A stretch of DNA of 64,000 nucleotides from an uncultured archaeon (GTDB taxonomy: Archaea; Asgardarchaeota; Hermodarchaeia; Hermodarchaeales; Hermodarchaeaceae), in assembly GCA_964347045.1 (NCBI GenBank), contig CAYFXC010000004.1, positions 1 to 64,000 on the forward strand. The letters are read 5' to 3'. The notes below the pieces were generated by a model. It worked only from the letters and a program-made list of their open reading frames with translations, made no database searches and was not told the DNA's origin. The position numbers and the translations under genes were made by a program. The stretch's first letter is position 1. Every line of letters begins with the position of its first letter. Below, piece after piece: positions 6,098 through 27,958 of the stretch.

Positions 6098-6345
6098 AAA
6101 ATCTCGGATTTCCATTGCTACCATCCTACTAGGCACTCTGCTAGCTGTGACCCATGTTTTCTTGGTAAGAAAGAAAACACGATAACAATCAATTGCGTGG
6201 AAAGATTGGTTTTCCTAATTTTGTTATTTCCAGTTTTTTAACCTAGAAAATGCCCATTGGGCGGAAGCTATTAATTCCCGTTTTGGAATACCAAGTAAAT
6301 GCCTGTTGCTGGCTTACGTGGTAGAAAGGTATCTGTTGAAGAAAA

Positions 6346-22513: not shown

Positions 22514-23812
22514 GTGGAGCGGGTATCATTGCGAGCAGCGATGGAGAGGCGGATGGGTGCCCTACGAACAAAGCCAGTATTCTATTTTCTGGCGCTCATT
22601 TCAGGAGTTCTTTACGCTTTTTCCGTTTTCTACGACGTGCTTCTTTATCGATTATACTTTTACCCCTTTCTTCCAGACATATATTCATCTGTGGCTTTTG
22701 CACTTGGCGAACAATGGTTGGCACTCCTTTTCACCGTAATTTTACTCGTAATCGTAAGTATTCCAACAAACCGAGCGCGTCGTAGGAGTCTTGGGACCCA
22801 AATCGATCGATCCTTCGCCCATATAGCATTACCCTCACGGAAAAACATTCGTGATATTATCCTTGCTGGAATCTTTGCTGGTGTTGCTACTTTTGCATAC
22901 TATTTTGTCGCAGGGCAAAGCAGCGATGTCTCAGCTGTTATTCCTTTCTCACGCCTTTCACTAATTTACTTAATGATTGGTGATCTGATCCTTATCCGAG
23001 ATTGGCCTAGCTCACTTGAAGCCCTCTCCATTATCGTAATCGCATTTGGAGTTATTTTGGTGGGTGTAGCGCCCGTAGGTCTCTTCAATCCTTATTTATT
23101 GCTATTTGTAGTCACAGTGTGGGCAGGTGGCATTGCCATTAGCGTGTTCTTTCAAAGCCGGGCAAAACGTACTGAGATACGTCCGAAGGCGACAATTGAC
23201 TCTTTGAATCTGCGTTTGTGGATTCTTCTTTTTCTAAATATTGTCATGACCCTTTTCATGATTCCGTTCATTACCCCCGAAGTATTCAATATCCTCGCCA
23301 TACAACTTCCAGTAGTTTGGGGTTGGCTTCTACTTCCTGTAGCATTAACCTTCTTCTCACTAGTTGCATATCTTCAAGCCCTTGGTCGCGGAAAAATGTC
23401 CATTGTCCAAAGCATTGGATCCATTGCTATCGTCCTAGGAATTCCCTTAACCATGGTAGGGGCAATCCTTTATCCGGGCATTTTCTTTCCCCCTGCAAGC
23501 GACTTTTTATCCTGGATGGTAAAACTCACCGGCACGATTTTCGTGGTTGCAGGAATTGTAGCTTTATCAAGTGCCACGTTACGAGGATATGTGTTTGTAA
23601 AATTGCGACCAGGAACTGGTGATATCATGAGTGAATTACGACGCATCCATGGTGTTCGCAGTGTATCAGCAATTTCAGGACGCTGGGATTATCTCATACG
23701 GATCGAGATTCGCACTCTAAGCAGCACACGTGTGAAAACTCTCCGGAAAATCGAAGAAATCAAAGGCGTCACTGACATGGAAACTTCTCTTATCCTTAAA
23801 GAATGGGAATAA
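22514..23812 (+). CDS. DMT/EamA-like 10-TM transporter fused to a C-terminal Lrp/AsnC RAM domain
   Basis: Two 5-TM halves; C-terminus ISGRWDYLIRI…IEEIKGVTDMETSL. Confidence 0.75.
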   Translation: MERVSLRAAMERRMGALRTKPVFYFLALISGVLYAFSVFYDVLLYRLYFYPFLPDIYSSVAFALGEQWLALLFTVILLVIVSIPTNRARRRSLGTQIDRSFAHIALPSRKNIRDIILAGIFAGVATFAYYFVAGQSSDVSAVIPFSRLSLIYLMIGDLILIRDWPSSLEALSIIVIAFGVILVGVAPVGLFNPYLLLFVVTVWAGGIAISVFFQSRAKRTEIRPKATIDSLNLRLWILLFLNIVMTLFMIPFITPEVFNILAIQLPVVWGWLLLPVALTFFSLVAYLQALGRGKMSIVQSIGSIAIVLGIPLTMVGAILYPGIFFPPASDFLSWMVKLTGTIFVVAGIVALSSATLRGYVFVKLRPGTGDIMSELRRIHGVRSVSAISGRWDYLIRIEIRTLSSTRVKTLRKIEEIKGVTDMETSLILKEWE

Positions 23813-25712: not shown

Positions 25713-27290
25713 TTATCCTTCAACTGAAATCGGGGTAGATATCAGATTTTGAAGTGCTTGATCTAGACTGGTTATTCGGGGCATTTTGGTTTGCCCAATG
25801 GCTTTATTGTGTTCACGAAGGCGTTGACGTTCAAGGGTGTCAAAGATTCCTATTGTAACAGGATGAATAACAGCAGGGAGAATTGTCCGGGCCTCGCGAA
25901 CGTGATAGTACAGTTCGCTGACTTCTTGTAGGTGAGTGTCAAATCGTTTCGAGAATGCATCTAGATTCGGTGGTGATTGACCGAATTCGGCAAAGACATG
26001 ATAGGTTCCACCCTTTGCAGTCACTTCGGGGGCAACTACAAATTCCCGTATTAGTAGCCCCTGGTCCTCACAGGTCAGCGTGAGAGCAACGCTGATATCA
26101 CCCTCAGTGACTTTTTCACCACTGATATTTATGGTGTTTTGACTTTTTCCAAGACATTGGAGAGTTGGGGGATTCTTTGATGTAAATACAACAAGGTCAT
26201 GGACATCATATCGCCATAATCCACTTGGAGCCGTTATAACGATACGATAGGGAGTATTGATTTTGACATCAGATAGGGGAATAGTTTGTGCGTCGGGAGA
26301 AATAGGACCCTCTTGGGATGGTACAAATTCGAATATTATATCATCTACAACAGGTACAACTCCACGTTGATCTTCGTACAGTTGAAATCCATAGGTGCCC
26401 TCAGTTCCCGCATAAGCTTCGTGTACATGCACATCGCCCACAAGATCTTTGATAACGGGTGAATACAATTCTTTTACTACACCAGATGAAAAAATAACAG
26501 ACAAGTTTGGCCACAGGGTTTGTAGATCAAGTAAGTTTTCTTTCGTAACTGCCGTATTTATTCGCCTTCGAGCCTTTGATGATATGCTAGTATCAGACAT
26601 TAGCCAGTCTAGAGATTCGAATTTAGTACGCCGAAGTAACGCCATGACAAAGGAGGTCAATCCTATACAAGCAGTGATATTAGGTTTTTCAATCGCTTGT
26701 CGAATGGTTTCTCGGAATTTTTCTTCCCAGTCAAGAATGTCAAACACATCAGTCTTGGGAACGATTTTACTCTTAAGAAATGGATTAGCATGTTTCATGC
26801 CATAACCCGTTAGATAGCCGATATCCCAGTTTTCCGTTCGTTTATAGATAGAAGGCGCCATTATTGCGAGAAGTTTCCCTTGTAGGAAAGATCGGATGTT
26901 ATCTGCTGAAGCAAAATAAAGTAACTGAAATCGGTTTGCGGATTTCCAAGTTGTAGGCGTGTAAGGAATTAGTTTAGGTTCACCTGTCGTACCACTCGTC
27001 GCCATTACAGCGAAGATTGGTTCAGGATAAAATACGTTTTGATTACCATTCAATTCCGCTTGGATGAATGGCTGAAGGTCTTTATACTGATTAATGGCAA
27101 CATTGTCTATGAAATCTTTATAATTGTTAATCTGAGAGAATTTATGTCGTTTGCCATAAACCGTATTTTTCGAAAAGCCAACTAGTTCTTTAAGTCGTTT
27201 AGACTGAGCAGCGTTAGGATCTTGCAGATTCTTGATAAACGGTTTAACCTTCGTTCGATAGAGAACTTTTGAAATCAGGTTCCATATCAT
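25713..27290 (-). CDS. GH3-family acyl-acid amido synthetase-like protein (ANL superfamily)
   Basis: TSGTTGEPKLIP, YAGTEG, GLWRYDVHD, GEKVTE, GQTKMPR. Confidence 0.9.
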   Translation of the reverse strand: MIWNLISKVLYRTKVKPFIKNLQDPNAAQSKRLKELVGFSKNTVYGKRHKFSQINNYKDFIDNVAINQYKDLQPFIQAELNGNQNVFYPEPIFAVMATSGTTGEPKLIPYTPTTWKSANRFQLLYFASADNIRSFLQGKLLAIMAPSIYKRTENWDIGYLTGYGMKHANPFLKSKIVPKTDVFDILDWEEKFRETIRQAIEKPNITACIGLTSFVMALLRRTKFESLDWLMSDTSISSKARRRINTAVTKENLLDLQTLWPNLSVIFSSGVVKELYSPVIKDLVGDVHVHEAYAGTEGTYGFQLYEDQRGVVPVVDDIIFEFVPSQEGPISPDAQTIPLSDVKINTPYRIVITAPSGLWRYDVHDLVVFTSKNPPTLQCLGKSQNTINISGEKVTEGDISVALTLTCEDQGLLIREFVVAPEVTAKGGTYHVFAEFGQSPPNLDAFSKRFDTHLQEVSELYYHVREARTILPAVIHPVTIGIFDTLERQRLREHNKAIGQTKMPRITSLDQALQNLISTPISVEG

Positions 27291-27430
27291 TTTTTTCGCT
27301 CCTAATCATTTCATGAGCGAAACCTCCACACAAATAGGACCAGAGGCATTGTTCCACCACGCTCACCTCGAAGCCACTAGCGGAATCAATGCCTGGTCAG
27401 CATGAGTATTTGTCCGCAAAGTTTCGCTCC
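27291..27430 (-). promoter_or_regulatory. Structured 5' leader of the GH3 gene with alternative pairings (riboswitch/attenuator-like)
   Basis: Long imperfect hairpin 27315-27429; its arm at 27315-27323 is also complementary to the RBS region 27294-27301; TATA-like element at 27459-27466. Confidence 0.55.
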
Positions 27431-27958
27431 ATCAAGCGAGCAGGCGTGAATTCAACCATTTTTAAGCGCTTTGGGAGCTAGAAAATCAAATAGTTATCAA
27501 AGAGATTAGCTGAAAGTGCTTTGAAGAGTCAAAAAACAGTTATTTCCAACATCAATAATGGGATGCGAAAAGATAACAAGAATGGATAACGAAGAATAAT
27601 TTTCTTCGATAGTATTTTTACTATTCTCAAAGAGGAATTAGATAATTTTCACGAATCTGCACTAATTACAGGATATATCCTCTTTAAAGACGAAGAAGCT
27701 GGTTTAGCAGCTCTGTAGAATAGTTTCACAGTCTGGAAATGCAAATTAGTAATCGACGTATCCCACATAACGCTTTTAAACTAAACAAAATTGTCGCAAG
27801 AGAGGACACAACCTACTCCAAATCGAATAAATGAAGGTGTAGAACAACATGGAACCACGATCCGATGGCCCAGTTTTCCCGTGTTAAGTTCAATAATCTA
27901 GAAGAGTCTTGGGATGTACAGTGGAAGCAACCCTGTCATCCCGATTTCTTCTTTTTCA

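Follow-up and report, generated by a model that had tools for sequence, protein, structure and literature searches.

The GH3 gene of a Hermodarchaeota genome is preceded by a structured RNA that is real, uncatalogued and restricted to its lineage. We tentatively read this RNA, at somewhat less than an even chance, as a 5' leader of the GH3 mRNA that acts post-transcriptionally and is recognized by a protein. Gene and leader lie on the minus strand of the window, by which we mean the whole 64,000-nucleotide stretch of DNA that was analysed. The initial annotation had offered three options for this leader: a protein-responsive element, which fits best, a novel riboswitch, which is unlikely, and a thermosensor, which is unsupported. 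The features referred to below are these.

25713..27290, minus strand: GH3-family acyl-acid amido synthetase, 525 aa (PF03321, PF23571, PF23572)
27291..27302, minus strand: GH3 ribosome-binding site (RBS) with GGAG at -12, placed by the genome-wide GGAG peak
27315..27323, minus strand: 3' strand of helix P1, a possible anti-Shine-Dalgarno (anti-SD) sequence (P1 pairing; alternative helix with the RBS)
27315..27429, minus strand: leader hairpin of 115 nt, made of P1, variable middle helices and an apex (z -5.61; covariation)
27357..27380, minus strand: apical double-bulge motif (90% paired, 18 compensatory cells, 0/500 shuffles)
27411..27433, minus strand: 5' segment, the SD-like 5' strand of P1 followed by YGCGGAC (sequence conservation)
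27433..27436, minus strand: predicted transcription start, about 23 bp after TATA
27447..27454, minus strand: proximal promoter element T[GC]AAWT[CGT]A, palindromic in the window (intergenic alignment)
27459..27470, minus strand: BRE/TATA of the GH3 promoter, TATA at 27466-27459 (YTTAWRAR kept in 20/20 orthologous leaders)
27849..27887, plus strand: Pro/Gly ORF of 12 codons with its own TATA (27773-27780), an SD, and a 3' hairpin (27911-27942) with U-tract

The GH3 gene, its promoter and its neighbours

The gene is complete. Like plant JAR1/GH3 and OlsH, its product has all three GH3 Pfam domains; it also carries the S-G-T-T-G adenylation motif, and a profile search relates it to the structures of JAR1 and GH3 (E 6e-28). 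Orthologues with 54-91% identity are found in Ca. Hermodarchaeota and related Asgard MAGs, and GH3 genes of any kind in 62 of the 201 Asgard genomes searched. In the sister genus (G015-G018; L027-L039) each genome has 9-12 GH3 paralogues in tandem arrays; they share 31-36% identity with the window's GH3 protein, and these tandem paralogues are without the leader. A RimK-like ATP-grasp gene and an inositol-1-phosphate synthase gene lie upstream of GH3 on the same strand. Three genes from GH3, a membrane protein with a C-terminal Lrp/AsnC ligand-binding (RAM) domain is encoded at 22514-23812 on the plus strand. The only prokaryotic GH3 function that we found in the literature is that of the planctomycete OlsH in the synthesis of ornithine lipid, an amino-lipid (PMC12493201), so the signal for the GH3 leader cannot be guessed from the enzyme. 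In the literature that we searched, no GH3 gene is described as being controlled by an RNA.

We assembled 20 distinct orthologous GH3 leaders from genomes of the family and from JGI, Logan and NCBI contigs. The segments quoted in the initial annotation were all found where it had put them on the minus strand (27430-27421, 27323-27315, 27302-27288 and 27466-27459); the last of these, which it had called TATA-like, is the TATA conserved in all 20 leaders. The distance from the first T of TATA to the GGAGCGAG-like 5' strand of P1 is 31-37 nt in 20/20 leaders. The proximal element is fixed at 11 nt from the same T, again in 20/20, and the strict pattern of TATA plus element has one copy in the genome. 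In T. kodakarensis the median distance from TATA to the start is 23 bp (PMC4247193). Because the conserved TATA sits 31-37 nt before the conserved 5' strand, the transcript is predicted to begin at the hairpin, probably at 27436-27433 and 3-7 nt ahead of P1. A TG step at 27434-27433 is conserved in about half of the leaders. A search of the genome for a leaderless TATA peak with which to calibrate start sites found none. The earlier proposal of a start just before the hairpin thus agrees with the constant promoter distance, which predicts a start upstream of 27323, the exact position being a calculated one.

A small-ORF unit that spans 27773-27956 on the plus strand runs away from GH3 and towards the RimK-like ligase gene. 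We found the ORF in 19 Hermodarchaeota loci, with 11-16 codons and the pattern M-[DNE]-P-x-G-P-x-x-P; among 121 genomes searched it is confined to the Hermodarchaeota family, apart from chance-level matches. All four Pro codons are used at the three fixed prolines, along with three Gly codons and three stop codons. This variety of synonymous codons, a strong signal, together with length changes that stay in frame, argues strongly that the small peptide is real. The 3' hairpin after the ORF covaries. A T[CG]AAAT-type element follows TATA at equal spacing in the two divergent promoters (27447-27454 on the minus strand and about 27785-27792 on the plus strand), and this suggests a shared regulator or promoter class. 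If we were to speculate, the peptide might be linked to GH3 or RimK as a substrate, signal or ligand, the link being the locus and the promoter type; pairing of the small-ORF RNA with the GH3 leader is not cognate-specific. Midway between the two promoters, at about 27608-27646 on the minus strand, there are two short A-rich blocks about 20 nt apart, one GAAAATTAT-like and one AAAAATACTATC-like. They are conserved in most orthologues and are possible transcription-factor sites.

The leader hairpin and its apical motif

The 123-nt leader folds at -54.3 kcal/mol (z -5.61), and none of 200 shuffles folds as well. The opposite strand reaches only -37.5 kcal/mol, and the G-U pairs of the hairpin favour the mRNA strand. 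Among 917 regions upstream of long ORFs in the genome, the GH3 leader is the second most stable. The most stable one, at about 6100-6260 of G000:C41 on the minus strand (in L109, z -4.6), contains an SRP-helix-8-like stretch, CCAGG...GGGAGCA; it has no Rfam match at E 0.5, and the true SRP RNA is on C1. Across 11 leaders 81.8% of the cells of the whole hairpin are paired and 35 are compensatory; none of 500 shuffles does as well, and slid controls reach about half as much. These covariation counts are inflated, since the leaders are related and represent only about 10 independent clades, and since the structure was derived from the very sequences on which it was scored. In the five pairs of the P1 core 54 of 55 cells are paired, with one compensatory change from G-C to A-U in one clade. 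The hairpin of about 115 nt that had been proposed is therefore real by stability, rank and covariation, and the comparison of orthologous GH3 leaders shows its structure to be conserved.

The gappy full alignment gave a different picture, since from it RNAalifold found only a weak mini-hairpin of 3 bp at the 5' end, GCG-N6-YGY. It could hold the 5' strand and is formed in 45/48 cells, which is not above shuffles (74/500). The same GCG-N6-CGC dyad could be taken for a DNA operator, but the C/T asymmetry is more like G-U pairing. Sequence conservation extends over the first ~23 nt, also in leaders where the pairing partner differs, and this 5' segment is kept in leaders without the apex, including three short ones. 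In every leader, long or short, P1 starts at the predicted +1.

The initial annotation had drawn the apex simply as a loop. This does not hold: the region 27380-27357 is structured, and no other part of the element is as well conserved. In the window it consists of the pair A27378-U27359, a bulged G27377, a lone pair U27376-G27360, a bulged G27375, a helix of 3-4 bp and a purine-rich loop. In the consensus, the closing A-U pair is followed by a G bulge, one isolated Y-R pair, a second bulge with a purine, the GCU/AGY helix and a loop of 7-8 nt rich in purines. The lone Y-R pair is formed in 15/15 motif-bearing leaders (C-G in 11, U-G in 2, U-A in 2), the six pairs below it vary freely in sequence, and the covariation of the apex exceeds all slid controls. 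Across the 20 leaders the apex is intact in 12, degenerate in 3 and lost in 5, the losses being in three short leaders, which have P1 only, and in two long hairpins whose apex has eroded. The short natural leaders (L015, L032 and L062; 65-80 nt) retain P1 and the 5' segment and would serve as ready-made controls for experiments.

Three look-alikes of the apex were considered and rejected. It is not a tRNA D-arm, as the D-loop GG and all other parts of a tRNA are absent; it is not SRP helix 8, the true SRP RNA being elsewhere in the genome; and its orientation and lone pair rule out a bulge-helix-bulge splice site.

The element is single-copy in each genome and always lies directly before GH3. 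Its full-length model matches only this genus among 151 Asgard genomes, more diverged versions precede the GH3 orthologues of the sister genus, and the leader was not found before 20 GH3 genes from other Asgard families. Outside the Hermodarchaeota family, matches to the apex pattern are near control level. Several single matches are due to chance: those of the apex model in two sister-genus genomes (E about 0.004) and in one more, which are inside coding genes, for instance antisense in a CDC48-like gene, and a match in G093. A scan with Rfam 15 gave no match that reached the gathering score, none on the hairpin even with E allowed up to 10, and none in 8 orthologous loci, in agreement with the earlier remark that no known aptamer class is recognizable here. 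Being single-copy, lineage-restricted and without an Rfam match, the leader is neither a MITE nor a catalogued RNA; the genome-wide MITE-like repeat that the initial annotation had considered is contradicted by the single copy at an orthologous position.

The ribosome-binding site and an alternative helix

Counted over the genome, GGAG begins most often at -15 to -12 and GTGA at -10 to -9; 48% of start regions contain SD-like words, vs 9.5% for the background further upstream. The GH3 GGAG at -12 is within the GGAG peak, and its reading as a Shine-Dalgarno sequence is borne out. Such heavy use of SD sites is unlike the situation in Lokiarchaea, where they are rare (PMC12993045). A GGAGGTGA-type SD signal is strong in about half of the genes of the whole genome (G000). 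No 16S rRNA is present in this assembly.

The 3' strand of P1 can pair either with the 5' strand (-16.3 kcal/mol) or, by 8 bp, with the RBS (-12.1 kcal/mol), so that the two partners of the proposed switch do exist as computed structures. For the window's leader the P1 state is favoured over the anti-SD state by 6.5 kcal/mol and accounts for almost all of the ensemble. Without the 5' strand, the computed accessibility of the SD falls from 0.53 to 0.17. By these calculations the SD would be open by default in the window's leader and the helix that masks it latent.

Across orthologues the difference between the two states ranges from -10.9 kcal/mol (SD blocked, in L011 and L012) to +15.7 kcal/mol, and in L017, L019 and L020 it is within 2 kcal/mol of zero. 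The alternative helix is possible in most genus-level orthologues, and neat versions with changed sequences are seen in L018, L022/L023, L062 and L107; it is absent in the sister genus. The leaders pair with their own RBS better than ordinary genes do (-8.0 vs -6.2 kcal/mol, Fisher p 0.024, 10 clades). Their pairing with the cognate RBS is not better than cross-species pairing: four versions of the test, including three window sets, were run and none is significant at the clade level (p 0.19-0.47), the value without correction for kinship being p 0.054.

The near-identity of the 5' strand to the RBS, to which attention had been drawn, is present as a 9-nt match but is only mildly unusual, as 3-7% of the start regions of the genome pair as well with the window's 3' strand and GGAGCGA occurs in 6/917 of them. 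Pairing with the RBS is possible because the 5' strand is SD-like. Of the mutually exclusive stems of the initial annotation, what stands is that the alternative helix can form, and more readily than in ordinary genes; what does not is specificity for the cognate site and presence in the sister genus. Switching of the GH3 leader by an anti-SD and an anti-anti-SD is thus plausible but weakly supported.

What might read the leader

Our preferred reading, recognition by a protein, can be put as follows. The RNA would form a single long stem; at its base the 5' end would be paired and the pyrimidine strand kept off the RBS. The default state in the window genome, as computed, would be translatable with a protected 5' end. 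The apex and the 5' segment are conserved in sequence beyond what pairing needs, and for this reason we read them as a recognition site for a trans-acting factor, most likely an RNA-binding protein or a nuclease. Binding may alter the lifetime of the mRNA. Another possibility is that capture of the 5' strand would free the 3' strand, which would pair with the SD and lower translation.

Counting for this reading are the fold, its covariation, the kept lone pair, the constant promoter distance, the use of SD sites and the retained 5' segment. So do the pairing with the RBS above that of ordinary genes, the change in accessibility and the hairpins at other Asgard GH3 genes. Counting against it is the apex, which is dispensable since it is lost or eroded in 8/20 leaders. 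The scattered state energies and the non-cognate anti-SD pairing also count against it, as does the outcome of a domain search that found no RNA-binding domain in the GH3 protein.

Among known systems the archaeal L7Ae autoregulatory leader, in which a small non-canonical motif is read by a protein and can control access to the RBS (PMC6298567), is the closest to the GH3 leader in how it would work. Unlike that leader, ours has no k-turn (no tandem G-A/A-G), is stably folded without a protein, has its SD outside the stem and precedes the gene of a GH3 ligase rather than of an RNA-binding protein. Tandem GA/GA is not conserved in leader alignments A3-A5; the apex is bulge-pair-bulge.

A rather unlikely alternative is that nothing is switched. 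The stem at the 5' end would constitutively stabilize the mRNA by slowing exonucleolytic decay and would tune translation, and the anti-SD match would be a by-product of a purine-rich, SD-like 5' strand. Bacterial mRNAs are known to have 5'-terminal stabilizers, such as the ompA hairpin and the cry3A STAB-SD, and these too have a stem or an SD-like sequence at the very start of the transcript, although the SD-like strand of the GH3 leader, unlike theirs, is paired. A stabilizer would account well for P1 at the predicted +1 of every leader, for short leaders that keep P1 only, for an anti-SD match without a cognate-specific signal and for the unrelated hairpins at the same place in other Asgard GH3 genes. 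It leaves unexplained, however, why a double-bulge apex 50-60 nt from the 5' end is conserved, and why the first 23 nt are conserved where their pairing partner changes. No requirement for a conserved internal bulge motif is known for stabilizers of the ompA and cry3A type.

A more ambitious proposal, which we hold to be unlikely, is a new class of two-state translational switch of Asgard archaea. A metabolite, a protein or the 12-residue peptide would choose between P1 and the anti-SD:SD helix, and GH3, the peptide and the RimK-like ligase would form one regulated unit of peptide or amide modification.

A conventional riboswitch, in which the double bulge or the 5' segment would bind a metabolite or ion and the balance of the same two helices would thereby be shifted, seems to us quite improbable. 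The conserved internal motif with covariation would suit it, as would a metabolic ligase as the downstream gene, exclusive helices that can form, and orthologues of which three are within 2 kcal/mol of balance and two favour the blocked SD. Yet among 151 Asgard genomes the element is confined to one gene, one copy and one family, neither a multi-helix junction nor a pseudoknot was found in it, and nothing in Rfam matches the hairpin even at E up to 10. Moreover, some 45 nt separate the apex from P1 and both predicted states contain it, so that binding there would have no obvious coupling, and 5/20 leaders have lost it. As of 2021 the fluoride (crcB) riboswitch of T. kodakarensis was the only experimentally determined one in archaea (PMC8241225). 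The GH3 leader does resemble translational riboswitches that sequester the SD, having a structured, covarying leader with a strand able to pair upstream or with the SD. It differs from them in lacking an Rfam match and a compact aptamer junction, in its restriction to a single gene and family, in a platform that is not significantly conserved and in an SD that is free by default in the window.

To a similar degree we doubt that the 5' segment is a decoy for ribosomes. A ribosome sitting on this start-like sequence would block P1, and the 3' strand would then mask the true SD. GGAG followed after 7 nt by NUG is found in 8/17 leaders and an AUG at the transcription start in 10/20; the segment is very like the GH3 RBS found in the nearest clade, and the threefold drop in SD accessibility on loss of the 5' strand is what a decoy would exploit. 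Neither start codon is conserved, however, the resulting uORF varies in length from 9 to 55 codons as well as in frame and peptide, and the apex is unaccounted for. A leader-peptide attenuator was rejected on similar grounds (AUG in 10/20; varying length, frame and sequence).

It is very improbable that the hairpin is an independent or processed small RNA, guide-like or trans-acting, that is co-transcribed with GH3. The hairpin is discrete and stable, has its own promoter and bears a box-C-like UGAUG at its 5' end, but no D box, k-turn or ACA box is conserved across orthologues, no U-tract follows it, it always lies directly before GH3, and the SRP and RNase P RNAs of the genome lie elsewhere. 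A C/D or H/ACA guide RNA in particular was rejected: only the C-like UGAUG is seen, in about half of the leaders, and the bases after P1 vary. An RNA thermometer or the end of a MITE or transposon is scarcely credible, despite a stable hairpin near the SD, because the SD is outside the stem with a computed accessibility that stays flat (0.49-0.57 from 10 to 55 C), and because one copy per genome at an orthologous position across the family, with imperfect, RNA-type pairing, is unlike a mobile element.

Thus recognition by a protein remains our preferred reading. The reach of the finding is limited to one gene and one family. Within it, the GH3 leader is a defined RNA of 120 nt, supported by covariation, that contains a small new motif and has natural deletion variants, and it is easy to probe in vitro and through Thermococcus or Methanosarcina reporters. 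Thorarchaeia-like and Odinarchaeia-like GH3 genes (loci L094, L095, L097-L100, L105 and L087, L088, L090, L091) carry short conserved hairpins of their own, different from ours, that touch or cover the SD. One of the two ends right at a GGAGG SD, often with a GGAC/GUCC core, and the other encloses an AAGGUG SD. These separate hairpins beside the SD hint that GH3 may often be controlled at its leader in Asgard lineages.
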